From contig JBMFWW010000014.1 of the NCBI GenBank assembly GCA_049964835.1, positions 1 to 18,552 of the forward strand: DNA of 18,552 nucleotides, given 5' to 3'. Every line of letters begins with the position of its first letter. The first letter of the stretch is position 1. The translations under genes were made by a program, and so were the position numbers. Below are positions 2,014 to 17,583 of this stretch, piece after piece. Under the pieces are notes generated by a model. The model searched no databases. It saw nothing but the letters and a program-made list of their open reading frames with translations, and had not been told where the DNA came from. The stretch is from Candidatus Micrarchaeia archaeon (GTDB lineage: Archaea; Micrarchaeota; Micrarchaeia; Micrarchaeales; CABMGC01).

Positions 2014-2964
2014 TTATTTGTTTATATATTTTTTAAATAAATCAAAATCATTATCCATAATTTTACTTATTCTTTTAAATCTTAATGCTGCGGCAGGATG
2101 GAATGTTATCATATATTGTATATTATTAATTTTTATTAATTCACCATGATGCTTTGAAACTTTATCAATATTAAGTAGTACCTTTGTTGATATGCTTCCT
2201 AATGTTATTATAAATTTAGGTTTTATTATCTCTATCTGCTTTATAAGAAAGTTCTTGCATATATAGATTTCTTTATCTGTCGGTATTCTATTTTTAGGAG
2301 GGAAAAATTGTACTGCACTTGTTATATAACATGAATCTCTACTTATTCCAAGTCTTTCAATCTTACTATTTAATAAAACTCCGCTTCTTCCTATAAATGG
2401 CAATAATTTTTCATCTTCTAATCTTCCAGGCGCTTGCCCAACTATCATCACATCGGTATTCAAAGGCCCATATCCTTTTACATACTTTTTACTTAAATCC
2501 CAATTTTTATTTATGTAAGGTAATTTAGCATATTCTTTATTTAAATCATGAATCTTTTCATATTTCAATATATACTCATAAGCCTTACTTATTACATGTT
2601 TCAAATTATCATAAGCTATCTTTTCTAGAGCACTTTCTATTTCCAGCCATTCATAACCTTTATGTTCTTTTGATACCTTTACATTTTGTGTTGAAGACTT
2701 ACCTATAAAATAAACAACACTTTTTTCTACAAGTTTATTACTTCTAAACTGATACTCAATTTTCATAGAAAAGTGCTCCAATATTTTAGGTTTTAAAGAA
2801 GTTTCTTCAAAAATCTCTCTTTTCGCAGCAGATAGATCATCTTCATCATTTTCAAGATGGCCTTTTGGCATATCATATCTGTTATCACCTTTAAGAAGCA
2901 AAATAAGTATCTCCTTATTTTTTCTATAATATACTACTGCTCCTGCACTTCTTTCCTTTATCAT
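2014..2964 (-). CDS. Fusion of a Nudix hydrolase (Ap4A-hydrolase-like) and a family-4-like uracil-DNA glycosylase
   Basis: N-terminal SAGAVVY and Nudix box GHLENDEDDLSAAKREIFEETSL, plus SKEHKGYEW. C-terminal UDG motifs MIVGQAPG..ED...PFIGRSG, PPKNRIPT..EI..C, IITLG and FHPAAALR. Confidence 0.9.
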   Translation of the reverse strand: MIKERSAGAVVYYRKNKEILILLLKGDNRYDMPKGHLENDEDDLSAAKREIFEETSLKPKILEHFSMKIEYQFRSNKLVEKSVVYFIGKSSTQNVKVSKEHKGYEWLEIESALEKIAYDNLKHVISKAYEYILKYEKIHDLNKEYAKLPYINKNWDLSKKYVKGYGPLNTDVMIVGQAPGRLEDEKLLPFIGRSGVLLNSKIERLGISRDSCYITSAVQFFPPKNRIPTDKEIYICKNFLIKQIEIIKPKFIITLGSISTKVLLNIDKVSKHHGELIKINNIQYMITFHPAAALRFKRISKIMDNDFDLFKKYINK

Positions 2965-4472
2965 ATCTTCACCAAGTTATCTATTATACAAGCTCCCTTA
3001 TTCAAATCTTTGGTTACTGTACTGTTATAGAAATGGAATGATAGAGAGTTATAAATTATATCTTGTAAATTTTCTTTATAACTACAACTATAATATTTTA
3101 AACTACTTGTAGGAATTATTGCATATAAATATTCAACTCCAAATTCTAGTGTAGATATATTATAAGGTAATCCTTCTTCAAAAACAACAAAAGAGGTACT
3201 ATTTGAAATGTTATAGTAAAATGTACTGGTAATCCCATTTTTATTTATCACAAATGTTGGCGAATTCTTATAAACAAATGAGCTATTAAAGTAAGAAAAT
3301 ATTATCGGAGATGTAGTATTTATTTCGCTTTCATTATGATAAACTTCCAGAGCATAGCTATTATTTCCATTTTTTACAACTCCTACGGGATAATTGCTTA
3401 TATTTATGTAACTCACTAATTGCTTTAGTTGCAATGTACTATTTAAATTATTTAGTGCATTTTGATATGATCTTGCATAAACTACATTGTAATTTAGATA
3501 AAGAAAGAGGTAACTAATTGCAAATATAAATGACAGTGTAATTCCAAAATAAATACTTTTTTTATTTTTTATAAACTGATTTTTTAAATGAGGTACACTC
3601 AAACCAAACTTTCCAGCTAAAAGCAAAACTATAATTATACTTAGATAGAATAAGAAAATTCCTGCAAATTCATGAAATAGCAGTAATCCTGATGTGGGCC
3701 CGTTAAGTATCCATTCCAAAGCAATAAAGGTCATTCTTATTATATTTATTAAAAGAAGTGTAAAAACACCAAAAACTATCCAAAAAATCTTTTTTTTATT
3801 TTTTCCATTGAAAAAAAAGGCTACTGGCAACAATAAGAAAATTATTGCTATTAATAGTCCTAATCCGACGCAACTCTCTCCAATACCTATTCTATAACCA
3901 TTAGCAATTATGGTTATCGGAGCAGAGTAAACAATGCCCTTTATTGATATACTTAAAATATAATATACTAATTTAGTATTTAATATTGTGAAAAGTGAAT
4001 TTAAGTTTATTAAAAAAGATAAAACGAAAGGAGATGTAAATATAGAATATAAATACAAGATATAAAATTTTTTGATATTTTTAATTCCAAAAAGCAACGT
4101 TACGAAAACAACGAGTAATAAAGGCAGCAATATCAAATCAATTCTATAAGCTAAAAATAAATATGAAAGATAAACTCTCATATAAAATGTTATTATTATC
4201 AATAGCAAAAATAATACTATACTTGATATTATATCTATTTTTTTAACATTTATTTTAATATTTTTCTTTATATAAAAAAAGCCAAATATTGGTAACATCA
4301 ATATTGGTATAATAACATAAGTTGATGGATTTGTATCACTTATTCTTGAATTTGTTAATGTTATGTTGTATAAAATACTTAAGGCTATAAATATTGCAAA
4401 AAGTACAAAGGCCAAGTTCTTATTATATTTCATAAAAACACTTATGTCCTCAGCCGATATAGGCGTCATCAT
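2961..4472 (-). CDS. Exosortase/archaeosortase family membrane transpeptidase with a C-terminal soluble domain
   Basis: Many hydrophobic segments. The Cys-Arg-His triad occurs in family context: IGESCVGL, NIIRM, FHEFAG. A hydrophilic N/S/Y-rich tail of about 170 aa follows. ATGA overlap with the Nudix-UDG gene at 2961-2964. Confidence 0.8.
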   Translation of the reverse strand: MMTPISAEDISVFMKYNKNLAFVLFAIFIALSILYNITLTNSRISDTNPSTYVIIPILMLPIFGFFYIKKNIKINVKKIDIISSIVLFLLLIIITFYMRVYLSYLFLAYRIDLILLPLLLVVFVTLLFGIKNIKKFYILYLYSIFTSPFVLSFLINLNSLFTILNTKLVYYILSISIKGIVYSAPITIIANGYRIGIGESCVGLGLLIAIIFLLLPVAFFFNGKNKKKIFWIVFGVFTLLLINIIRMTFIALEWILNGPTSGLLLFHEFAGIFLFYLSIIIVLLLAGKFGLSVPHLKNQFIKNKKSIYFGITLSFIFAISYLFLYLNYNVVYARSYQNALNNLNSTLQLKQLVSYINISNYPVGVVKNGNNSYALEVYHNESEINTTSPIIFSYFNSSFVYKNSPTFVINKNGITSTFYYNISNSTSFVVFEEGLPYNISTLEFGVEYLYAIIPTSSLKYYSCSYKENLQDIIYNSLSFHFYNSTVTKDLNKGACIIDNLVKI

Positions 4473-5002: not shown

Positions 5003-5059
5003 AACTATAAATATCTGAAAAAGTCAATGTTTTTATCATATAAATATAATTGTGTTTTT

Positions 5060-6439
5060 ATGGCGTTAGAACGAATATATTCAAATCAACAGAGCGAAGA
5101 GCGAAGCGAAATAATAAAAATTCTGAATGGGATCCCAAGTAAGGCAGTGCTTTTTAATCTTATATCTAAATATAAAGACGCACCTTCATTTATTTTATCA
5201 AGAGAGGATTTATCAAAAAAAATATTTGATTTTGGGACTGGAAAGACATATGCTCACGAACTTGTAAAACTTAGCTTATCCTCAAGTTTAAGGGCAATGA
5301 ATTCACCAAATATTTGGGCAATAAAAGATAAGTCTGGTTGGAGTGTTGGTCATGAAGCGGCAATTTCACATATAGAAGTAGCAAAAGAATGTATAAAAAA
5401 TCAAAACTCATCAGAACTTTTAAGTATTCAAGATGTAAAAGGCTATACAGTTGCAAACGCCATTTTAAATAAGTACAAGAATATCTTGAATAATGAAGAA
5501 TTAGTTTTTATACGTATTTTTATCGAAAGCAATAAAAATAATGTAGAAAATAAAACTGGGCAGAATATTGGGTCTTCTCAAAAAAATGCAGATAACATCA
5601 ATGTGCAATCAGATACTCCAATAAAAACTTCTACTACTGAAAATAAAGTTTCAAATACACCTGTAGGAGCTCAAGAATTGATTGATTTGGAAGAGCATCT
5701 TAAAGACCAAATAAGAGATGATGAAAATAAGAATTTTTATTATGATGAAAAAAAAGAGATATACGATCAAATTGCTTCTATGGTAAAAAAAGGCCAGATT
5801 ATAAAATTACAACAGCTTCTTAAAGATGATAACCTTTTAACTAACTATATGGTTTCAAATAATATAGGACTTGATATTGTATTAAATCATAAAGGTCATA
5901 CTGTTGGTCATCTTCTTGCAGCTTCTAATGAAAGTTTAGCAATAAAATTAATATCTAACCTTAAAACCGCTGAAATTGCAACAAAAGACAAAAATTGGTC
6001 TATTGCTCATGAGGCAGTACTACATTATAAAAATGCAGCTCATGTTGCAATGAACTCAGAAAATATATGGGACATTTCAGAAAATAATGGAAAATCTGTT
6101 GGTCATGTTGCTGTTAGAACACATAAAGATATAGCAATGCTATGTCTTGGTCATGAAAATTCAAAAAGACTTCTTCTTGTAGAAGATGATAACATGATGA
6201 CTGTCGCACATGCTGGACTTTACTGGTCAGAATTTTCATTAATGGTTTTAGAAGATAAAGAGTTATACTCTATAAAAGATTATTCTGGAAGAACTCTTGC
6301 ATTAATTGCAGTTACAATGCATGCAAGTTCAGCAAGGAAGGTTTTGCGTGTACCTGAACGATATATATCTGTACTGGGACAAAAAGATGGTTCACAATTA
6401 ATACGCGCTGCAAAGCAGAAATTGGCAGAGCAAAAGTAG
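5060..6439 (+). CDS. Ankyrin-like repeat protein (likely start ATG 5060; ORF track starts at 5027)
   Basis: Repeated G-x-[TS]-x-[AG]-H-x-A-like motifs at about 33-36 aa spacing: GKTYAHEL, GWSVGHEAA, GYTVANAI, GHTVGHLLA, NWSIAHEAV, GKSVGHVAV, MMTVAHAG, GRTLALIAV. They form two clusters split by an N/T/K/S-rich linker. Confidence 0.65.
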   Translation: MALERIYSNQQSEERSEIIKILNGIPSKAVLFNLISKYKDAPSFILSREDLSKKIFDFGTGKTYAHELVKLSLSSSLRAMNSPNIWAIKDKSGWSVGHEAAISHIEVAKECIKNQNSSELLSIQDVKGYTVANAILNKYKNILNNEELVFIRIFIESNKNNVENKTGQNIGSSQKNADNINVQSDTPIKTSTTENKVSNTPVGAQELIDLEEHLKDQIRDDENKNFYYDEKKEIYDQIASMVKKGQIIKLQQLLKDDNLLTNYMVSNNIGLDIVLNHKGHTVGHLLAASNESLAIKLISNLKTAEIATKDKNWSIAHEAVLHYKNAAHVAMNSENIWDISENNGKSVGHVAVRTHKDIAMLCLGHENSKRLLLVEDDNMMTVAHAGLYWSEFSLMVLEDKELYSIKDYSGRTLALIAVTMHASSARKVLRVPERYISVLGQKDGSQLIRAAKQKLAEQK

Positions 6440-6853: not shown

Positions 6854-6924
6854 AGCCAGGAGAGGGAATCGAACCCCCCTTTTCCGCTCTGCAGGCGGAC
6901 GCATAGCCTATCTGCCATCCTGGC
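6854..6924 (-). tRNA. tRNA-Cys(GCA), intronless, CCA not encoded
   Basis: Reverse complement reads GCCAGGA-TG-GCAGATAGGCTATGC-G-TCCGC CT GCA GA GCGGA-AAAG-GGGGG TTCGATT CCCTC-TCCTGGC-T. The U73 discriminator is typical of tRNA-Cys. Confidence 0.96.
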
Positions 6925-7019
6925 GTAGTTTTTCTACTTTTAAAAACAATACATTAATTTATTTTATTTTAAGATAAGTATTTAAAGTATAAATATCTAG
7001 ATATTTAAATGGTGTGTAA

Positions 7020-8147
7020 ATGAAACAAGCATTTGAAGTATTACCTAAAGATTTTGTATCCGAAACATATTTTTTAAAGCACAGCGACCATCTAACTGGA
7101 GCTATACCCAAAATAAATAAGAGTGGAGTAGTAATAGTTATGAAAGAAAAGGAGTATTATGGTGTTGTTGATGACAGACTTCTATATAGGAGCAATCAGA
7201 AAATAAACAAGTCAAATAAACTTAGTTCTTTTTCAGTGAAATTACCTCTTCTTGATGATCAAACAAGTATAGAAAAGGCCATAAATATCTTCTATTCGTC
7301 ACAAGCAAAGGCTCTTCCATATAGTTATAAAAATAAAATCCTAGGGGTAATAAAAAGAGAGACAATACTTAAGGCTATACTCTCTTTGCATATGGCGTCT
7401 GATCTCAAAGTGAAAGATATAATGTCTACTCCTGTAATAGCTGTAGAGCCTTCAATGAGCATTTCAAATGCAAAAAATTACATGCAAAAAAATAAGGTAA
7501 ACCGATTAGTAGTTTCATCTTCTGGAAAGTTAGACGGTATAATTACTTATAGGGATATACTGCAAAATACTGAAAGGATTCCGGAAAAAAGTTCAAAAGG
7601 AAGCAAAGCTGACAATGTTCAAAATAGCAGCATTTCATCAATCTATTCTACAAATCCTTTCACTGTAAATCATAACGACTCGGTAGATAATGCGATAAGA
7701 TTAATGATAGAAAATAAAATTTCATCTCTAGTCGTAACAAGAAGCAATAATCCTGCAGGCGTAATAACTACAAGAGACATACTAGAAGCATTAATAAAGA
7801 ATTCTGGTACAGTTGACGATATAGTAATATCCGGTTTAGATGATTATACAAAAGAGTACGAGGAGGAGATACGAGAAGAGATTAAAAAAATGGAAGAAAA
7901 GATACAAAAGTTCCATAAGATTAATGTAGAACATATAGTACTTAATGTGAAAAGACATAAGAGTAAAAATTACGAACTCCATATGCGTGTTTGGTTGGGT
8001 AAGAGAGGTGTAATATCACACAAGATGAGTGGCTTCTCACTTGAGACTGTACTATCCGAGCTAATAAAGAACTTTTATAATAGCATAAAGAAAGAAAAGG
8101 AAATGATATATATTAAAAAAGAGCCAATGGCTAGATATGATGAGTAA
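7020..8147 (+). CDS. Tandem CBS-domain protein with a C-terminal HPF/RaiA-like domain (archaeal Hib-type ribosome hibernation factor candidate)
   Basis: CBS signatures VKDIMSTPVIAV, NKVNRLVV...GIITYRDIL, ISSLVV...GVITTRDIL, with a degenerate N-terminal CBS pair. The C-terminal ~95 aa (IVISGLD...EKIQKF..IVLNVK..YELHMRV..ISHKMSGFSLETVLSELIKNF) fits the beta-alpha-beta-beta-beta-alpha HPF pattern. GGTG RBS at 7011. Confidence 0.8.
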   Translation: MKQAFEVLPKDFVSETYFLKHSDHLTGAIPKINKSGVVIVMKEKEYYGVVDDRLLYRSNQKINKSNKLSSFSVKLPLLDDQTSIEKAINIFYSSQAKALPYSYKNKILGVIKRETILKAILSLHMASDLKVKDIMSTPVIAVEPSMSISNAKNYMQKNKVNRLVVSSSGKLDGIITYRDILQNTERIPEKSSKGSKADNVQNSSISSIYSTNPFTVNHNDSVDNAIRLMIENKISSLVVTRSNNPAGVITTRDILEALIKNSGTVDDIVISGLDDYTKEYEEEIREEIKKMEEKIQKFHKINVEHIVLNVKRHKSKNYELHMRVWLGKRGVISHKMSGFSLETVLSELIKNFYNSIKKEKEMIYIKKEPMARYDE

Positions 8148-8607
8148 GAATTTAAAACTACAATCGAGCTTTGAGTTGCTTGTTACTTTATCTATAGGTT
8201 TAGCCATACTTCTTCCTCTAGTAATAATAGCATTTATACAGCTTTCAAACGCGAATGTTTCCGTAAGTTCAATACAATCACAGCAAGCAGCTTCAAAGCT
8301 AGCCAGCATAGCAACAACATTAGCTTCAGAAGGTCCACCTTCAAAACAATTTGTACAAATCCAAGTACCACAAGGTGTTCAAAACATTTATGTAGGCAAT
8401 GAGCAAGATGGCATAGGTCATATAATACTCTTTGTTGTACGTGCAGAAAACGGTCCTAGCTATATAACCGAGTATACACCTGCAAATATAAGCGGCAATC
8501 TGGGGGGAGTTGTAAATCAAGGTACGTATATTATTAATCTAACTGATGAAGCAAATTGTCCTTCAGATACATCTTTGAGTTGTGTTTATATGTCACCAGT
8601 AGTTTAA
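8137..8607 (+). CDS. Class III signal peptide (type IV pilin-like) protein
   Basis: N-terminus KLQSSFE followed by a hydrophobic helix (Q+1, E+5 pattern). The start overlaps the end of the CBS gene. Confidence 0.75.
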   Translation: MMSKNLKLQSSFELLVTLSIGLAILLPLVIIAFIQLSNANVSVSSIQSQQAASKLASIATTLASEGPPSKQFVQIQVPQGVQNIYVGNEQDGIGHIILFVVRAENGPSYITEYTPANISGNLGGVVNQGTYIINLTDEANCPSDTSLSCVYMSPVV

Positions 8608-8625
8608 TTATAAGTAATTGGTTTT

Positions 8626-11292
8626 ATGGTTTTAAAAGTACAGATAGCATTGGAGTTCATGATAATATTTTCATTCATAATGGTAATTTTTCTTTTCATG
8701 TTTGCTCTAATCGCTACACAAAGAAGCTCTGTTGCAAATCAGCAATCATATTCTGAACTTCAAAATATCGCGCAGAATATTGCTCAACAAATAGATCTTG
8801 CAGAAAGTTCAGGAAGTGGATATTACTCAAATATTAGTTTATACAGCCAAGTAGGAGTTCCAATATTTAATCTGAGCATAGAAAATGGTGGAATAGTAAT
8901 ACTAACATCAAAAATAGAAACACAATTTTTAAGAGCTTTAGCTTACTCTAATGTTAAAAATATAGAAGCACCGACATATTTGTCTAACAATACTTTAACT
9001 GTAGAAAATTATAACGGTCAGATATGTGTCGATACTCCATGTTTTAAACCAAATAACTATCCGAATATTCTTCAGACTTCAACACAAAAAACATCTATGA
9101 ATGGAAAATCAGGTTATTTAATCAATACTTACACATCAAATCAATCAGGTTCACCTTCACAAAACGCAATCATAGGATTTGCATCTACAAATAACAATTT
9201 TTCAAATTATGCATTTTCAGTAAACAAGACAAATAACTTCGGAGTTGCAAATGTATTCTTAAATAATTATAATTCATACTCTGGGTCATTAGTAAGGATT
9301 ACTCCATTTCAAGGTGGTACTGGAATGTTCCATAATCTAAGCCAGTTTCTACCGCTAAATTTAGGATCTGGAAATTATATTTATGATTTAAGCGGTTATA
9401 ATTCAATAGGATACTTGACAAATGTAAGTTGGGCAATGCCAAATTATGCTGCAGAATTTTTAGGCAACAGTTACATAAAATTAAATACACCACCAATTCA
9501 AAATTCATTTACAATCTCATTTTGGGTAATGCCATCCTCAATTGCTTCAGAACAAATACTCGGCCAAAACGGCACAGACTCTGGTACTCTATCATTGTCA
9601 ACCACATCTAGTCCATCAATGCCAAACTTTTATGAGCTTAATATTCAAGGATTTGGAAATGTAATGCTGGGCTCGTATATCCCCAATACGTGGTCTATGC
9701 TTAGTATAACGTATAATTCAATAACTGACAATTTAAGCACATATCAAAATGGTTATTTACTAAATTCTTATACTGACTCTATTTCTCCTAATACCATTGC
9801 TCCATTTTATATCGGTGCAGCAAATCCAATTTTTTCTAACTCATTATTTAGTGGGAAACTTGCAAATCTACAGTTTTACTCGGTTCCATTAAAACAAAAT
9901 GCAATACTAAATCTATCTGTTTTTGGAGTTAGTACGCCTCCAGTGCAGTCAGGAAATATACTCTTATGGATGCCACTAAATGGTGATATGAATAATTATG
10001 CCAATTCTTATACTAATAGCTATGGAATAAATGTTTTTGGAAGCATTCCTTTCATACAGCAATATCAACAAATTAACAACTCAATAAATCAAACAAATCT
10101 ATTAGTTGCTAATTTCAACGGCGCAAATTCATTAATATCAATTCAAAATCCGTATAACTCTATTTTAGACACAGGTTCTAGAGGCGGTGAATTTGCAGTT
10201 TCTTTATGGTTTAATCTAAGCTCGCAACAAGCGCAGCAGCCACTTTTAAGTACATATCCTTATACAACATGTGGTTTCTCTGCCAATATATTGACAACAA
10301 ATACAATTTTATTTTCTGACAACTGTGGCAACACAATATCTTATCAAATACCTTTATTTCAAAATAGATGGTATAATCTTATAATATCACGAACTTATTC
10401 TAATGCACTTAACTATTATGTTAATGGTGTTCTTGTCTATAATACCCAATTTCCTAGTATTGCAGATTCTGGCTCTTGGAGTTCAATAAATATAGGCACC
10501 TCTTCATCAGCTTTCTTTGATGGTTCAATGTCAAACATTCAATTTTATAATACATCAATATCAAATAATCAAGCCAAAGCGTTTTTTGATAAAGGCCTTT
10601 CATATATACCAAGATATGAAAATTTGACTTTATGGATGCCATTAGATGGCTCTCCTAACAATTTTATGTACAATTCAAATTCAGTGCCATCAAATATAAT
10701 TTATCAAGAAATATCAAATAAGCCTACAACTCCTTATTATCCATTGTTAAACTCAGGTTTGATATTTAATGGAAATGGTGGAGTTTCAGGCAACGCAAAC
10801 ACGGTAATCGGGACAAATACCTTTACAATAAACGCCTGGGTATATCCTGCTCCTTTTAATAGATTTTTTGAATTTGTAAATCAGTACGTTATCAATGGCG
10901 GTGCAATATCTCTTGCAATAAATAAGGGTACTGGGACGCCATCGAATTCATTTCTTCTTAATCTGTCAGTTTCATATGCAGGATCCTTTTATTATAATAT
11001 AGGTGGCGCCATAACTCCATACACATGGTCACAGATTACTGGCGTTTACAATGGTAAAAATCTTACAACATATATTAATGGTAAAGTGGCTTCTGTAGAA
11101 AAGTTTTCTGCAAATCTTCCAACTCAGGTAAGCTCATTTTCAATAGGTGGTTATAACATTGCAAACTTTCCATGGGATTATTCTGGAATAATAAGTGACG
11201 TATCGTTATACAAATCACCATTAAATAGCACACAGATAAATTATTTATACTACTCCGGAGCCCCTAAAAACTCTAAAGTGGTACTTCCATAG
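8626..11292 (+). CDS. Large pilin-like adhesin with three LamG/concanavalin-A-like domains
   Basis: KVQIALEF plus a hydrophobic helix, then three repeats with FTISFWV/FAVSLWF/FTINAWV, W..[LI]....., Y.NG and G..[AS][ND][LIV][QS][FL]Y. FLPLNLG, LWMPLNG and LWMPLDG motifs recur. Confidence 0.85.
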   Translation: MVLKVQIALEFMIIFSFIMVIFLFMFALIATQRSSVANQQSYSELQNIAQNIAQQIDLAESSGSGYYSNISLYSQVGVPIFNLSIENGGIVILTSKIETQFLRALAYSNVKNIEAPTYLSNNTLTVENYNGQICVDTPCFKPNNYPNILQTSTQKTSMNGKSGYLINTYTSNQSGSPSQNAIIGFASTNNNFSNYAFSVNKTNNFGVANVFLNNYNSYSGSLVRITPFQGGTGMFHNLSQFLPLNLGSGNYIYDLSGYNSIGYLTNVSWAMPNYAAEFLGNSYIKLNTPPIQNSFTISFWVMPSSIASEQILGQNGTDSGTLSLSTTSSPSMPNFYELNIQGFGNVMLGSYIPNTWSMLSITYNSITDNLSTYQNGYLLNSYTDSISPNTIAPFYIGAANPIFSNSLFSGKLANLQFYSVPLKQNAILNLSVFGVSTPPVQSGNILLWMPLNGDMNNYANSYTNSYGINVFGSIPFIQQYQQINNSINQTNLLVANFNGANSLISIQNPYNSILDTGSRGGEFAVSLWFNLSSQQAQQPLLSTYPYTTCGFSANILTTNTILFSDNCGNTISYQIPLFQNRWYNLIISRTYSNALNYYVNGVLVYNTQFPSIADSGSWSSINIGTSSSAFFDGSMSNIQFYNTSISNNQAKAFFDKGLSYIPRYENLTLWMPLDGSPNNFMYNSNSVPSNIIYQEISNKPTTPYYPLLNSGLIFNGNGGVSGNANTVIGTNTFTINAWVYPAPFNRFFEFVNQYVINGGAISLAINKGTGTPSNSFLLNLSVSYAGSFYYNIGGAITPYTWSQITGVYNGKNLTTYINGKVASVEKFSANLPTQVSSFSIGGYNIANFPWDYSGIISDVSLYKSPLNSTQINYLYYSGAPKNSKVVLP

Positions 11293-11302
11293 GTGTTATC
11301 AT

Positions 11303-11842
11303 ATGAGAGGACAATTTTGGTCATTTGATGCAGTTTTCGGCATACTTTTATTTATTTTAGGAATTATAATACTTACTTACTCATGGATTACAATAAGCGG
11401 CAACTATTCTTCTATATCTTCAGATAATACAGCGGTGATGCAAGCGGAGTTAAACCAGCTAAGCAGTGCACTTTTTTTAAGGGGCAATCCTACTAATTGG
11501 AATTCAGTTGTAAATGTTTCAAATCCTTCTACATGGTCTGGAGTTTCAGTAGGTTTGGGAAGTAATTACGGTTCAAGCGATATCTCTGAAAATAAGCTAC
11601 TTGCACTTCTTGCAATGTCTACTTACAATTATAGCTTGACAAAGGAAACTCTAGGGGTAACATTTGACTATTACATAAATATAACAACCAATATCCCTTC
11701 TTTTAGCATACAAATAGGTAAGAATCCAAATAACTTCAATCCTACTTCGGTAAATAAACTATCAGAACCTGTTTTAATAAATGGTCAACCAGGAAAAGCA
11801 ACAATAACTATATGGACAAATACAACATTTGGTGTTTCTTAG
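11303..11842 (+). CDS. Class III signal peptide (minor pilin-like) protein
   Basis: MRGQFWSFD followed by a hydrophobic helix, with a GNPTNW motif. GGTG RBS at about 11292. T-tract after the stop. Confidence 0.8.
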   Translation: MRGQFWSFDAVFGILLFILGIIILTYSWITISGNYSSISSDNTAVMQAELNQLSSALFLRGNPTNWNSVVNVSNPSTWSGVSVGLGSNYGSSDISENKLLALLAMSTYNYSLTKETLGVTFDYYINITTNIPSFSIQIGKNPNNFNPTSVNKLSEPVLINGQPGKATITIWTNTTFGVS

Positions 11843-11997
11843 TTTTTTGTATAAAGTTAAAAATATGTATGTGACAATTCAAAGCCATGAAACATACTAA
11901 TTTTAATCATGAGCTATCAGTTCACTAATTAATTATACTACTTAGTAACTTTATCAAAGTAGGCATAAAATACACATGCTTTATCGGTGGGAGAATG

Positions 11998-13008
11998 TCA
12001 CGCAGCTGATCCTATATTGCTGAATAGTCCTCCGAGTGCTATAGAAACTAAAAAGAATATAGCTAAACCTATGATTATGAACACTGGAAGATACTTTAAG
12101 CCACGTATTGCAGCGCCACTAGAAATAGAAGCTACAATAAATGCACTTATACCGCTTATCAGTATTATTGCTACAAGTGAAAATATATTATACTCTGAAG
12201 GAGTTATTGTTGGTGGTTGTGGCTTCAAAAATGATACGGTACTAACCTGCGATACAGAGCTTAATCCGTTAGGATTCTGCTGCAGAATACCGCTCCATAT
12301 TGTATCTGTTATTCCAATCATCTTATTCGTTAATGCATATAAGGTTGGTGCACCGATTACAGCTGCAAAGATTATAAATATAGTGTACATCAAAAGTTGA
12401 CTTCCTATTTCCTTTTGTATTATCTGTTGATTTCTAAGGTCTTTTGATATTTGACTCAGTATATCTGCCATTCCTCCTCCATACCTCATTGCTTCTGTCA
12501 TCATTCTTGCTGTTCTTTTAAGTTGTAAGGATCTATATCTATTGGATAAATTTATCAAAGCATTTGTCATAGTTTCTCCAAAGTACAGCTGCTTAGCCAT
12601 TAAAAGTACATCATCTTTGAAGTACTTAAAGTCAGGTCTTGCAGCTGATATCAAAGCTTTGTCTAATGACACTCCGCTTCTCATATTTGCTGAAGCTATC
12701 TGAAGGTAATCTGGCAGTATCTCATCTACGAAGCTCTTTCTTTTGTCTATCATATATTCTAATATAGCATATAAACTAAATTCGAATAGTCCTGCGGCAA
12801 CAATTCCTATAAATGCAGCAATGCCAAAATTAAAGTTGAAAACAAGTAGGCTAAAGAACGAGAAAATAATTAGTAATGCAAACCCTCCAAGTATTGCAAT
12901 CTCTATAAAACGATTTATTGTAATTTTAACTCCTGAAAGGTCAAGCTCATCAGATATAAACCTTGCCAGGTTTCTTGATATAAGTCTTTCAAATGAAATT
13001 GCCATCAT
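11998..13008 (-). CDS. Type II/IV secretion system F-family (TadC/ArlJ-like) membrane platform protein
   Basis: LPDYLQIASANMRSGVSLDKAL, YFGETMTNAL and RYGGGMADILSQISKDLR, plus several TM helices. Start is probably ATG 13008 or 13005 rather than GTG 13014. Confidence 0.9.
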   Translation of the reverse strand: MMAISFERLISRNLARFISDELDLSGVKITINRFIEIAILGGFALLIIFSFFSLLVFNFNFGIAAFIGIVAAGLFEFSLYAILEYMIDKRKSFVDEILPDYLQIASANMRSGVSLDKALISAARPDFKYFKDDVLLMAKQLYFGETMTNALINLSNRYRSLQLKRTARMMTEAMRYGGGMADILSQISKDLRNQQIIQKEIGSQLLMYTIFIIFAAVIGAPTLYALTNKMIGITDTIWSGILQQNPNGLSSVSQVSTVSFLKPQPPTITPSEYNIFSLVAIILISGISAFIVASISSGAAIRGLKYLPVFIIIGLAIFFLVSIALGGLFSNIGSAA

Positions 13009-13010
13009 AT

Positions 13011-14183
13011 TCACATACTAAACGAAGGTCTGGAACTCTTTATCATATTTAAGAATATTATTTGTATACCTACTATGAATACTAGTACCATTATGAGAGT
13101 TGTCGTATTTATTGTTATTAAACTTATGAAGGTAGTCATTATCGCAGCAACTGCTATTCCCATACTTGGGAATATTACTCCAAATATCATATAAAACATA
13201 GCAAGAGCATTTAATCGTTGTCCATATCTTCTCAATTCTATTACGCGCTCTTGCATAATATCATCTATCACGCTTTGAAGTGATGTTGTTATATCTGCAC
13301 CTACTTTTATGCTTATACTAGCTTGAAGCATTATCCTTTTAAAGATCTTAGAGTAACTTTTTTCACTTATCTCATCAATAGCTTGTTCAATAGGCATACC
13401 TAGCTGCACTAAAGATACAATCTTTCCAAACTCAACGCTAGCCCATCCATATCCTGTACTTATTGAGGTAATTGCATTAAACAGTGGCATACCAGATCTC
13501 ATACCTATTACCATATCTCTTGTAGCAAATAATATGTCTTTGTCTATCTCTTTTCCTAACTTTCTACCTCTAGTTATTGGATAATTTATAAAATTGTTAA
13601 AGAATATATTGTACATAGCTATTAACGTAACAAGAGCTATAATAATAGAAGCTAGGGGGCTTACATTTAATTTATAAAGTATAGCAAAAACTAGAATTGA
13701 TGTCACTATAGCTAATAATATAGAGAACATCATCATTCTTTTTATAAAATCATAGGCGCTACTTTTAATTCCTATATCTCTCAATGCAGAATCCAATCCT
13801 TTTTTAGAAATTATTATTCTTGTTATATACGTGCTTTGTGCTTTAATTTTCTTATTCATTTTAGATTTATTTTTACTTTGGTCTGCAGAAGTATCTTGTG
13901 GCGTTGCATTTTGCTTGTTTGTTGATGTGCTTGAAAAATCTGAGTTAGTTTGATTCATATTTATATTACTTATATTTTTGCTTTGATTGGTAATAGGACC
14001 CGCAACATTAACATTGTTATTCTGCTGTAATTTTGTATTTTTGTTATTACCTTTCTTATCATCATAAATAGGTTTAGACTTTATCTTAAAAAATAAGAAC
14101 TTTTTACTTTTTGTGAATGCTACTGGTTTAGTAGAATCTTGACTATTGTTAATTCCAGTAACATTGTTCGTATCTTCTGCCAT
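13011..14183 (-). CDS. Second GspF/TadB-like membrane platform protein with a long low-complexity N-terminal extension
   Basis: MRSGMPLFNAI, GMPIEQAI and VGADITTSLQ, plus TM helices. ATG at 14183 is preceded by GTGA (ORF track starts at 14210). Confidence 0.88.
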   Translation of the reverse strand: MAEDTNNVTGINNSQDSTKPVAFTKSKKFLFFKIKSKPIYDDKKGNNKNTKLQQNNNVNVAGPITNQSKNISNINMNQTNSDFSSTSTNKQNATPQDTSADQSKNKSKMNKKIKAQSTYITRIIISKKGLDSALRDIGIKSSAYDFIKRMMMFSILLAIVTSILVFAILYKLNVSPLASIIIALVTLIAMYNIFFNNFINYPITRGRKLGKEIDKDILFATRDMVIGMRSGMPLFNAITSISTGYGWASVEFGKIVSLVQLGMPIEQAIDEISEKSYSKIFKRIMLQASISIKVGADITTSLQSVIDDIMQERVIELRRYGQRLNALAMFYMIFGVIFPSMGIAVAAIMTTFISLITINTTTLIMVLVFIVGIQIIFLNMIKSSRPSFSM

Positions 14184-14214
14184 CAAATTCACTAATCTAT
14201 ACACAGGCATTATT

Positions 14215-14787
14215 TTATATATTAGCTAATTTTTTAATTACTTCCTCTAATCTCTGATTTCTTATTTCTCCGTCCCCTCCAATAGAAATCCCCTTTTTTG
14301 TAATTGTTTTAATATAATTGTATAATCCGTTAGTTTCTTCTTTAATTATCTTTATCTGCTCTTCAGTAAATACCTTCTGATCTAAACCTATACTTATTTT
14401 TTCCAGTTCGTTTATCTGGTCATCAGTCGATAAATTTACTAAAATGAGAGTATTCTTTTTCGAAGCTCCAATGTTCATATCTTTTATATCTGTAATAACA
14501 TTTTTTCCAATTTCAGATATTGTACCTTGTAATTCTTTTTCAGCATCCTTTAAAATATCTTCTAAGAATGAAGAACCACTTTGATATATACCTGCTGTGT
14601 TCTGCATTTTGGTATTTTGTGTTACCCCTTTAGACCCAAAAAGATCCAAGACCTTTTCATAATCATAATCAAAAATATTGCTTTGTTGTGTCAACGCCCT
14701 GCCAAAGTCTATACTTACATTTTTTTCATCTGTTTTATTCATATTAGAAAGTATATTTATTACATCTTCATACTTTAATTCTTCCAT
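14215..14787 (-). CDS. Hypothetical acidic, soluble helical protein in the pilus assembly operon
   Basis: 190-aa ORF packed between the ATPase and TadB-like genes with very short gaps. No TM segment and no recognised motif. Confidence 0.75.
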   Translation of the reverse strand: MEELKYEDVINILSNMNKTDEKNVSIDFGRALTQQSNIFDYDYEKVLDLFGSKGVTQNTKMQNTAGIYQSGSSFLEDILKDAEKELQGTISEIGKNVITDIKDMNIGASKKNTLILVNLSTDDQINELEKISIGLDQKVFTEEQIKIIKEETNGLYNYIKTITKKGISIGGDGEIRNQRLEEVIKKLANI

Positions 14788-14791
14788 TTAA

Positions 14792-16288
14792 TCATTTAAA
14801 TAGTTCTTTATTATATGTCAAATTTTCCTTTACAACATCTAAAACTTTGGTTGGATTTTTATAGTAATTTGCTACTATAAAACCTGATGTTGTTATATCA
14901 AAAATCTTATTTCTTATCATCCAATCTATAATACTCGCTTTTTCTGCTATATCCTGATTTATCTCTTGAAATGAGTAACCTCCATATAACGATATTGTCT
15001 GTCCAAGTCTTGTTATATCCCCTACTTTCAAGAAAAGATCATTTCTTATGTCCCATCTTGATAAGACATTTACATCTCCCGAATTTGTAATTTCACCGAA
15101 TTCCAACATTCTTCTTATACCTAATCTTCTATGCCTAAATAATGAAACAACTGCTCCTATCGAATTAAGCATAATTTTAGGTATATCGATAGGTGGATTT
15201 GTCATTCTTATTATTGTATCTTGTGCATTATCTGCGTGAAGTGTACCATATACTGCGTGACCTGTGTGTATAGCCTCAAAAAGAGTTTCAGCATCATTCT
15301 TGACTCTAATTTCTCCAATTAGCATTATATCTGGTCTTTGTCTCAATGCGTTTATCATCAAGTCATAAAGCTTAACCTCTCCTTTTCCTTCAGGATTTGG
15401 CTGTCTCGTTTGCATAGGTATCCACTGAAGAAACTCAGGAAGACTAAGTTCTCTTGTATCTTCAACAGATATTATTCTTCTATTCGGAGGCATAAACATG
15501 CTCATGGCGTTGAGAAAACTTGTCTTTCCGCTTGCCGTACCTCCAGAAATTAGTATACTTATTTCATTTTGTATGCTTAACCAAATAAGTCCTGCAAGTT
15601 CTGAGGATAATGCTTTATTATATACCAATGCAGGCATGCTCCAAGGATTTGTAGCAAACTTTCTTATTGTTATTGTATTTCCTTTTACTGATATTGGAAA
15701 TAATGTTGCATTTACTCTTGATCCATCAGCTAATTCAGCATCCATTATTGGTGTTAAATTACTTATCTCCCTTCCAACTCTTCTCCCTATTTGTTCTGAT
15801 ATTTCATATATCGATGTTTCACTTTCAAGTTTTATAGTTGATTTGCACCAACCATGGTCTTTATGAAATACCCAAACCGGTTCATTTGCAGTATTAACTG
15901 CTACTTCTTCAAGATTTTCATCTGCAAGAAATACTTCAAGATCTCCAAGACCCAGAAACATATTTTTTATATAAGCTATAAGTGTATTTTTTATATCATC
16001 TGTTAATCCTGGTAAATATTTTTCTAATACTGTTTCTATAAAATTTTGGTAATTTTTGTTTAATTCTTTTATATAATTTTCATCTTGTAATCTTTGTTGA
16101 TCTACTGGCACTGAAGCTAAAATTTCAGGGCGCATAGACCCAAGCAGAATTTTTGTTGCTTCCCCTATTCCTGCATATGTTACATCATAAATAGGTACAA
16201 ATTCACCTTTCTTAGATATCTCTATATTAATGACAAGACCGTTGGCATTAATCATATACTTTGCAAGTTTAACTTCTTCTGGTTCCAT
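14792..16288 (-). CDS. Type IV pilus assembly ATPase (VirB11/TadA/ArlI family)
   Basis: GSRVNAT, ITIRKF, Walker A GGTASGKTS, Asp box SVEDTREL, LRQRPD..LIGEIR and His box HTGH..GTLHA. Likely start is ATG 16288 (ORF track GTG 16300). Confidence 0.95.
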   Translation of the reverse strand: MEPEEVKLAKYMINANGLVINIEISKKGEFVPIYDVTYAGIGEATKILLGSMRPEILASVPVDQQRLQDENYIKELNKNYQNFIETVLEKYLPGLTDDIKNTLIAYIKNMFLGLGDLEVFLADENLEEVAVNTANEPVWVFHKDHGWCKSTIKLESETSIYEISEQIGRRVGREISNLTPIMDAELADGSRVNATLFPISVKGNTITIRKFATNPWSMPALVYNKALSSELAGLIWLSIQNEISILISGGTASGKTSFLNAMSMFMPPNRRIISVEDTRELSLPEFLQWIPMQTRQPNPEGKGEVKLYDLMINALRQRPDIMLIGEIRVKNDAETLFEAIHTGHAVYGTLHADNAQDTIIRMTNPPIDIPKIMLNSIGAVVSLFRHRRLGIRRMLEFGEITNSGDVNVLSRWDIRNDLFLKVGDITRLGQTISLYGGYSFQEINQDIAEKASIIDWMIRNKIFDITTSGFIVANYYKNPTKVLDVVKENLTYNKELFK

Positions 16289-16296
16289 AAAACATC

Positions 16297-17583
16297 TCAC
16301 ATATTATTTTTAGGCGTATCTGCTACATTTTCTGTTTCATTATCTACTGCGGAGAGTCTATCATTAATATTTTTCATTTTATCATTTATTTCTTTAGATT
16401 TCTTTTCACTTTCTATAACATTTCTATAACTCTCTAAAATATTTGATTTTTTATCCATTTTAATTTTTTTAATTTTATTTTGCAAATCGCTTATTTCTTG
16501 AGTTATGCTTGCTATATCTTTTTCTAAATCTTTTATTTGATAATCAATATTCTTTATATCTTTAAGTCTAGCTTCATTATTTTTTATTTTTTCAAGATCT
16601 TTATTTACTGTTGAATTAATTTCATTGAATTTTTTCATACTAATATTATAAATTTTTTCTAAATCTGACTTAGTAAGATTCATTTTATCTATTAATGCTA
16701 TTCTCTCCTTTTGTATTTCCTTATTTATTGCATATTGATCTATCTTATAATCTTTAAGTTTATCATTATAGCTAGATATCTGTTCATTAATAGCCTTTTC
16801 AAATTTATTTATCTCTTCTTCTTTCTTTCTCAGTTCAATTTTTAAATCAACAAAACTGGCTCTTGTTTCATCCGTTTTTTTATCAAATTCATTAATCAGT
16901 TGATTTATATTACTTCTCATATATGATGTTTTACTTTTTATATCATCAATTACTGCCCTTGCATTTTTTGAAACTATATCTACATTCTGAAATGAAATAT
17001 ACTCTTTGTCAAATTCAAAACTTCTACTTTTTAATTTTTCTATATTAATATTTATCTGATCTAAATAGTTTTTAATCTCTTCTGTGTCTTTTCTAGCCTG
17101 AGCGTTATAAGTGTTAAGTTCATCTATTGTTTTTTTAATTATTGGTTCATGCTCTTTTAGCATTTTTTCCGCATTTTCAAAAAAGGCTTTAGACTCTTTT
17201 AATTTGCGATTTATAATTTCTACATTCTTCTTCTGGCTTTCTAAATTATCCTGTATTATGTCTGTTTTTACTTCATTTATTTTTTTAACTTGATTCGTAT
17301 CTAGCGTTTCTGTACCTTTTACTTGGTTAGTATTAGTTGCGTCAGTTACAATGCTATTGTCACTTCTATTAATAACAATTTTATTTGAAGCACTTGAAAC
17401 ATACATTTTACCTAACTTGTATGTTATACGTGCGAGCTTAGCTTTTTCTAAAGCCTTTGACCACTCTAAAACTGTGCTTTCATTAACTCCTAATATATTT
17501 GCTAAGGTTAGCACATCTGTCTCTCCATTTTGATTTATATAACTAAGTAAAGAATCAATACCTGTTAATATGTTGGCAGCCAT
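16297..17583 (-). CDS. N-terminal winged-helix domain plus long coiled-coil protein, first gene of the pilus operon
   Basis: LLSYINQNGETDVLTLANILGVNESTVLEWSKALEKAKLARITYKLGKMYV is an HTH/wing pattern, followed by about 330 aa of K/E/I/N heptad-rich sequence. Confidence 0.75.
   Translation of the reverse strand: MAANILTGIDSLLSYINQNGETDVLTLANILGVNESTVLEWSKALEKAKLARITYKLGKMYVSSASNKIVINRSDNSIVTDATNTNQVKGTETLDTNQVKKINEVKTDIIQDNLESQKKNVEIINRKLKESKAFFENAEKMLKEHEPIIKKTIDELNTYNAQARKDTEEIKNYLDQININIEKLKSRSFEFDKEYISFQNVDIVSKNARAVIDDIKSKTSYMRSNINQLINEFDKKTDETRASFVDLKIELRKKEEEINKFEKAINEQISSYNDKLKDYKIDQYAINKEIQKERIALIDKMNLTKSDLEKIYNISMKKFNEINSTVNKDLEKIKNNEARLKDIKNIDYQIKDLEKDIASITQEISDLQNKIKKIKMDKKSNILESYRNVIESEKKSKEINDKMKNINDRLSAVDNETENVADTPKNNM

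Follow-up and report, generated by a model that had tools for sequence, protein, structure and literature searches.

The stretch of DNA analysed here (the window, 18,552 bp) is a whole contig (C14) from the 806-kb genome, 94% complete, of a Candidatus Micrarchaeia archaeon. In this window, hibA (7020–8147, + strand, 375 aa), the gene for a ribosome hibernation factor of the HibA/AHA family, overlapped at its 3' end pil1 (8137–8607, + strand, 156 aa, or 155 aa with the start at 8140), a gene for a type IV pilin-like protein, and the same two genes were found next to each other across much of the class Micrarchaeia. Both proteins were of known kinds, and the class-wide hibA-pil1 pairing was the new result. 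The unit that was conserved consisted of hibA and one pilin-like gene, and not of hibA and an adhesin operon.

The conservation of the pair was investigated in 201 genomes of the class, of which 167 (a tally including G086) gave a HibA profile match at the cut-off of E ≤1e-20. For comparison, 90 loci were taken, each reaching from 3 kb before hibA to 9 kb beyond it, with 18 from the family of the window (f1), 30 from its sister family (f2, without G086) and 42 from 18 other families. The locus L100 was unoriented by tblastn and was left out of the counts. The hidden Markov model (HMM) of pil1 was built from f1 and f2 pil1 sequences only. In f1, pil1 was the gene immediately following hibA, and in the same direction, at all of the 17 evaluable loci, L048 having only 31 nt downstream. 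The same position was occupied by pil1 at 28 of the 30 f2 loci, while it was found at +1.5 kb at L077 and not at all at L070. Among the 41 loci of the other families, pil1 followed hibA directly on the same strand at 18, was adjacent and convergent at six (L079, L093, L098, L105, L110 and L113, two of them with weak matches of E ~1e-4), lay on the same strand after inserted genes at five and on the opposite strand at ~2.9 kb at three, these eight being no more than 3 kb from hibA; the remaining nine had no pil1 HMM match anywhere in the stretch taken. Direct same-strand pairs were distributed over the families f1, f2, f9, f15, f19 and f31. The adjacency that the preliminary description of this DNA had noticed in a single genome was thus kept in relatives. 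At L070, a different pilin-like protein of 304 aa, of the QSAMEYLMTYGWAIL type, was encoded directly behind hibA instead of pil1. At four f7 loci (L083, L087, L090 and L092), a gene for a 442–453-aa ThiD/ThiN fusion, corresponding to phosphomethylpyrimidine kinase and thiamine-phosphate synthase, separated pil1 from hibA and was oriented in the same direction.

An unbiased clustering of the open reading frames (ORFs) from 89 loci agreed with these counts, as the pil1 cluster was present in 70 loci and the next commonest neighbour in 22. The genes surrounding the pair differed from family to family. Downstream of the pair were a gene with LamG domains and pil3 in f1, and in f2 either convergent genes for NMD3, SecD, SecF and RIO1 or those for the threonyl-, phenylalanyl- and glutamyl-tRNA synthetases (ThrRS, PheRS and GluRS). 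In the other families, the neighbours were genes for dihydroorotase, dihydroorotate dehydrogenase (DHODH) and a TPR-AAA protein. Outside f1, the genes after the pair were thus of the housekeeping kind. The upstream genes for archease, archaeosortase and a NUDIX-uracil-DNA glycosylase (UDG) fusion occurred in only some of the f1 and f2 loci. The preliminary description had placed hibA at the head of a pilin/adhesin operon; the adjacency of pil1 was indeed conserved, whereas the LamG gene and pil3 were limited to the family of the window. As a separate observation, genes for ribosome biogenesis and secretion (NMD3-family protein, SecD, SecF and RIO1 kinase) adjoined the pair in convergent orientation at L055, L062 and approximately 20 f2 loci.

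The first gene of the pair was clearly a member of the HibA/AHA family as judged by homology and fold, and its product is predicted to bind the ribosome. CBS was the sole Pfam family seen in the window protein (E 3.4e-35), which gave no match to PF02482 (Ribosomal_S30AE) at E ≤0.01. When 54 family members were scanned singly at the same threshold, 25 of them matched PF02482. A database search gave 86 relatives, approximately 75 of which were full-length and came, where named, from Micrarchaeota; PF02482 was seen on three. The profile of the 54 members matched the chain 9sr9_H with an E value of 7.7e-40 in one stretch, aligning positions 17–365 with 15–374 of the chain. The entry 9SR9 is HibA-ATP of Pyrococcus abyssi according to the data-availability section of the corresponding paper (PMC13324472).

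The AlphaFold2 (AF2) model of HibA, with a predicted local distance difference test score (pLDDT) of 84.1 and a predicted template modelling score (pTM) of 0.77, showed four beta-alpha-beta-beta-alpha CBS units between residues 17 and 261 (CBS1–4). Residues 186–198 formed a low-confidence disordered loop between CBS3 and CBS4. In the solved complexes of HibA/AHA, the long loop at this position reaches the peptidyl transferase centre, and the characterised relatives plug idle ribosomes where mRNA and tRNA would bind. The C-terminal domain of the model had the order beta-alpha-beta-beta-beta-alpha, composed of strands at residues 268–271, 305–313, 317–325 and 331–338 and helices at 278–296 and 341–367. 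The whole model retrieved only CBS tetrads in Foldseek, including the archaeal ribosome factors SriA-D and Dri. A fold search with VIA-align, covering 48,161 representative chains, also aligned HibA with the CBS tetrads 3ddj_A, 9zni_7 and 3lfz_A (Z 19–20), and it matched residues 264–370 to chains of HPF, pY, RaiA and RafH with Z scores of 11.0–12.1. These included factor pY in 28lu_y (Z 12.1, root-mean-square deviation 2.5, 102 aligned residues), 5zep_x (Z 11.7, root-mean-square deviation 2.0, 94 aligned), 6eri_BV (Z 11.7), RaiA in 8rd8_D (Z 11.1) and RafH in 8whx_w (Z 11.1). The fold of residues 264–370 therefore bore out the preliminary description, which had taken the gene for a CBS-HPF fusion and placed the HPF/RaiA-like part at residues ~265–360.

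The family has been published under two names, as HibA from P. abyssi and Thermococcus barophilus (Madru et al., Nat Commun 2026; PMC13324472) and as AHA from Haloferax volcanii (Souza et al., EMBO J 2026; PMC13728122). The window protein resembled characterised HibA/AHA in its domain order, with the HPF/RaiA domain C-terminal to a CBS tetrad, in similar length (375 versus 392 aa), in the end-to-end profile match to 9sr9_H and in the presence of a low-confidence loop linking CBS3 to CBS4. It differed in sequence, being only ~20–25% identical, and in that its gene overlaps a pilin-like gene, an arrangement mentioned in the main text of neither characterisation paper.

The protein encoded by pil1 is probably a membrane-inserted type IV pilin-like subunit, a view based on its N-terminal motif and predicted fold, from which its export would follow. 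The N-termini of pil1, the LamG protein and pil3 were MMSKNLKLQSSFELLV, MVLKVQIALEFMII and MRGQFWSFDAVF, respectively, in each of which a basic leader of a few residues was followed by a Q and a hydrophobic stretch. This motif in its strict form was found in only 8 of the 832 ORFs of the same genome. Because the strict motif is this rare and the same neighbour stands behind hibA in most related genomes, the hibA-pilin arrangement is more than chance. The N-terminus of pil1, K-L-Q-S-S-F-E-L-L, was of the class III signal type; archaeal type IV pilins with class III signal peptides include the Epd pilins of Methanococcus maripaludis. An alignment of 50 members of the pil1 family showed invariant Q9 (+1), E13 (+5) and P78 and a K or R at -2, and a C-terminal Cys pair was common to the two closest families, f1 and f2. 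The AF2 model of pil1 (pLDDT 93.5) consisted of a helix at residues 7–65 on a six-stranded sheet. The N-terminal motif upheld the preliminary assignment of the genes after hibA as pilin-like, and for pil1 the helix-plus-sheet model agreed with it.

The pil1 model gave no Foldseek match at E ≤0.001, and its best rows in VIA-align were type IV pilins with weak scores (6xxd_A, Z 4.6; 5g2f_A, 3.9; 1ay2_A, 3.8; 4d40_A, 3.8; 5v23_A, 3.8). PF04021 (Class_IIIsignal) was touched by 8 of the 50 family members at E ≤0.1, with a best E value of 0.00012, and the window pil1 gave no match to it at E ≤0.1. Neither pil1 nor pil3 was assigned to a family in the Pfam and NCBIfam scans. All of the 165 database relatives of pil1 were unnamed or "hypothetical", and only unnamed archaeal clusters were retrieved from the ESM Atlas. 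Compared with archaeal type IV pilins, pil1 shared the short basic leader, Q at +1, S at +3, E at +5 and the hydrophobic helix, and the same genome encoded an A24 peptidase, a FlaI/PilB-like ATPase and a PilC/FlaJ-like platform. It was unlike them in lacking a Pfam or NCBIfam model, in the L at -1 and in a beta domain that had no significant relative among solved structures.

The pil1 profile matched 192 of the 201 genomes, and in the distant families it picked up several paralogues per genome. Between f1 and f2, pil1 was better conserved than HibA, with 42–63% versus 30–44% identity to the window proteins, which is unusual for a surface subunit. This conservation, together with the absence of a significant match to solved pilins, would fit a reading of pil1 not as a filament subunit but as a membrane protein that works with HibA, for instance one that positions stored ribosomes at the membrane. 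The predicted cleavage would, however, leave no cytoplasmic part of pil1, the Q(+1)/E(+5) motif, the long helix and the C-terminal Cys pair are hallmarks of pilins, and relatives of pil1 occur without HibA; we thus regard such a membrane role as highly improbable.

The geometry of the junction was analysed in 65 same-strand hibA-pil1 pairs, 38 of which overlapped (14 of them by ATGA), 25 had gaps of 0–20 nt and two had gaps of 21–60 nt. In the window, the pil1 start was either ATG 8137 or ATG 8140, giving an overlap of 11 or 8 nt with the 3' end of hibA, which terminated with TAA at 8145–8147. Shine-Dalgarno-like 4-mers preceded the chosen pil1 start in 36 of the 65 pairs compared to 15% of random 13-nt windows, a soft figure as the choice of start favoured such motifs. 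Since hibA and pil1 overlap or nearly touch, pil1 is most likely expressed from the hibA promoter. A candidate for the operon promoter, proposed from its sequence, was the AT-rich intergenic stretch 5' of hibA (6925–7019, + strand), in which four TATA-like hexamers (6939, 6981, 6988 and 7004) and a Shine-Dalgarno-like GGTG motif (7011–7014) were present.

The reading that we favoured, considering it slightly the better side of an even chance, was that hibA-pil1 is a widely shared operon of Micrarchaeia in which the strong hibA promoter also drives the synthesis of the pilin and the translation of the two genes is coupled. The two genes would form a transcription unit of the class, which in the family of the window would be extended by the LamG pilin-like gene and pil3. 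HibA would act in the cytoplasm as a CBS-tetrad and HPF protein. Expression of the pil1 protein would depend on the hibA promoter and, as the overlap suggests, on coupling of its translation to the termination of hibA; the protein would then be processed by the A24 prepilin peptidase of the genome and assembled by the ATPase and platform proteins encoded by the convergent genes of the window. With translation coupled in this way, pilin output would be tied to hibA expression. The most likely reason for the linkage would be that both proteins are required in high copy number and share a strong, largely constitutive expression, while the activity of HibA would be set post-translationally by adenylate binding. 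If HibA is controlled by adenylate binding, the operon need not be a dormancy-specific switch. For Thermococcales, the intensity-based absolute quantification (iBAQ) of HibA is given as comparable to that of ribosomal proteins (PMC13324472). AHA of H. volcanii is described as "largely unchanged" between exponential and stationary phases, and its authors propose control via AMP binding and argue that nucleotides, rather than synthesis, set the control (PMC13728122).

Several observations weighed against this operon model. Co-transcription of hibA and pil1 was deduced from gene geometry only, and the convergent pairs, which occurred in f5, f6, f10 and f20, indicated that it is dispensable. The related genomes are non-independent kin, so that fewer independent retentions lie behind the pair than the locus counts suggest. 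In f8, the pil1 profile matched 17 of 21 genomes versus three of 21 for the HibA profile, and in f14 four of four versus none of four. As for the identification as a pilin, the -1 residue of pil1 was L in the window and G, A or S in most relatives, and all matches to solved pilins were below Z 5 (Z 3.5–4.6) and hence weak. TATA-like hexamers were present in the 3' end of hibA at 8074 and 8107, ~25–60 nt before the pil1 start, and a pilin-specific internal promoter within the window hibA is possible from these motifs. Furthermore, hibA of Thermococcales is reportedly under the control of the heat-shock repressor Phr (PMC13324472), by analogy with which stress control of the hibA-pil1 operon is also possible.

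The internal hexamers were also relevant to an explanation without selection, namely that the adjacency is an ancestral accident retained through low rearrangement in small, dense genomes, with pil1 having a promoter of its own within the 3' part of the hibA gene and with independent regulation of the two products. The C-terminal tail of HibA (residues 364–375), poorly conserved and of low model confidence, is in line with such a neutral retention, as is the persistence of the adjacency through inversion in the four families with convergent pairs. Bacterial hpf is likewise found in conserved yet functionally loose neighbourhoods, for example beside rpoN. Against this explanation, pil1 was by far the most conserved neighbour (70 versus 22 loci) while the flanking genes varied between families. 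Moreover, the GC-richer relatives had no AT-rich box before pil1 and carried Shine-Dalgarno-like motifs and ATGA overlaps instead. The chance that neutral retention accounts for the pair seemed small.

A different explanation, raised in the preliminary description as a "dormant but fishing" programme, is that starvation or the lack of a host induces the operon in the symbiont, so that one transcript would both store ribosomes and raise host-capture pili. The conserved overlapping pair would indeed tie pilin synthesis to hibA transcription, the reported stress regulator of Thermococcales hibA would supply a precedent for induction (PMC13324472), and in the family of the window lectin-bearing pilin-like genes follow hibA in the same direction. 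Such a switch presupposes growth-phase control, and the Haloferax paper, in which AHA is flat across growth phases, argues for nucleotide control (PMC13728122). The adhesin-like genes, in addition, lay outside the unit except in one family, the pair was convergent in four families, and pil1 was not lost together with HibA. Of this programme, the conservation of the pair was retained and the switch itself was considered unlikely. Doubtful to us for the present is also the view that selection has kept the class-wide hibA-pil1 operon as a regulatory link, in which a core surface filament subunit is placed under the promoter and, by translational coupling, the ribosome traffic of an energy-sensing hibernation factor. 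If it were true, ribosome idling and the capacity for host attachment would be coordinated.

Two broader forms of the association were rejected. An obligate dependence of pil1 on HibA was not compatible with the presence of pil1 relatives where HibA was not found, and no co-loss of the two was seen. Pairing as a general property of HibA was not observed in six Ignisphaera-type (Thermoproteota) HibA loci, all of one clade, which had neither a pilin-like neighbour nor a pil1 HMM match.

The published work on HibA/AHA deals with structure, phenotype and phylogeny (PMC13324472, PMC13728122). In the main texts of both papers, apart from the supplements, which may hold context data, the terms operon and pilin had no occurrence, and the main text of PMC13324472 also lacked pili, synteny and genomic context. 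Literature searches on hibernation factors and pilins in archaea and on Micrarchaeota pili, judged by titles and listings, gave nothing on the pairing. The remark in the preliminary description that no report of the coupling was known to it agreed with these main texts. To our knowledge, a start-stop overlap of a hibernation-factor gene with a pilin gene has not been described. Bacterial hpf offers a likeness in that a hibernation-factor gene stays beside unrelated genes over long evolutionary distance, as in the case of rpoN-hpf in Proteobacteria and of Bacillus subtilis yvyD, which has flagellar genes and secA nearby, and differs in the domain of life and in the partner gene.

In a host-dependent class, the pair provides a testable handle on the expression of a hibernation factor in minimal cells, and on whether the production of surface filaments is tied to HibA. 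The pil1 family, unannotated, unusually well conserved and matched in nearly all of the sampled genomes, is the best candidate for the core pilus subunit of Micrarchaeia. Even if the linkage is neutral, the annotation of two unnamed genes remains useful.

In the window, hibA and pil1 were the first two of four + strand genes in a row, as seen in the ORF list, the translations and the raw sequence. The third (8626–11292, + strand) started 18 nt after pil1 and encoded an 888-aa protein, in which the pilin-like N-terminus was combined with three stretches of Laminin_G_3 (PF13385, ConA-like lectin; E 5e-42). From this domain composition the LamG protein is a candidate adhesive pilus subunit. It is similar to modular pilins, of which PilB and PilC of Streptococcus sanguinis are reportedly examples, in joining a pilin-like N-terminus to lectin-type modules with predicted binding. 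The fourth gene, pil3 (11303–11842, + strand, 179 aa), began 10 nt after the third and had an AGGTG motif 7 nt upstream of its ATG; homologues of pil3 followed the LamG gene in 10 f1 loci. Compared with other LamG-bearing pilus loci, the features of the window's own were three pilin-like genes, one of them with LamG, in a row headed by a hibernation-factor gene. The gene boundaries, the hibA-pil1 overlap and the gaps of 18 and 10 nt in the preliminary description agreed exactly with the ORF list and the raw sequence. A T6 tract directly 3' of pil3 (11843–11848, + strand) is a possible archaeal terminator by its sequence, and runs of five or more T were frequent throughout the AT-rich window.

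Genes for pilus assembly were located convergently to the pilin-like row on the - strand. The platform protein was split into two adjacent T2SSF (PilC/FlaJ-like) genes overlapping by 4 nt (11998–13014 and 13011–14210; PF00482, E 1.5e-16 and 5e-15). A T2SSE/FlaI-like assembly ATPase was encoded at 14792–16300 (PF00437, E 2.1e-33; NCBIfam FlaI-like, E 4.4e-74, below the cut-off), and one further PF00437 locus was present elsewhere in the genome. A 190-aa ORF with no Pfam or NCBIfam family (14215–14787, - strand) separated the ATPase gene from the platform genes, and beyond the ATPase gene a 428-aa protein with weak coiled-coil/SMC-like matches was encoded (16297–17583, - strand). The A24 prepilin peptidase of the genome was found outside the window, with a PF01478 match at G000:C6:2302-2595 (27.6 bits, above the cut-off).

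On the other side, a tRNA-Cys (GCA) gene detected by ARAGORN (6854–6924, - strand) was divergent from hibA. Further upstream were a 470-aa ORF with no Pfam or NCBIfam family (5027–6439, + strand) and a 503-aa gene of the exosortase/archaeosortase family (2961–4472, - strand). The latter was overlapped by 4 nt by a 316-aa ORF (2014–2964, - strand) in which a NUDIX domain (E 8e-15) was joined to a uracil-DNA glycosylase superfamily domain (E 5.4e-30), and these two genes were found again upstream of hibA in part of the f1 and f2 loci. At the beginning of the window, an open-ended ORF of 572 aa (1–1719, + strand) showed weak Kelch/beta-propeller matches, from which it may encode another surface protein.

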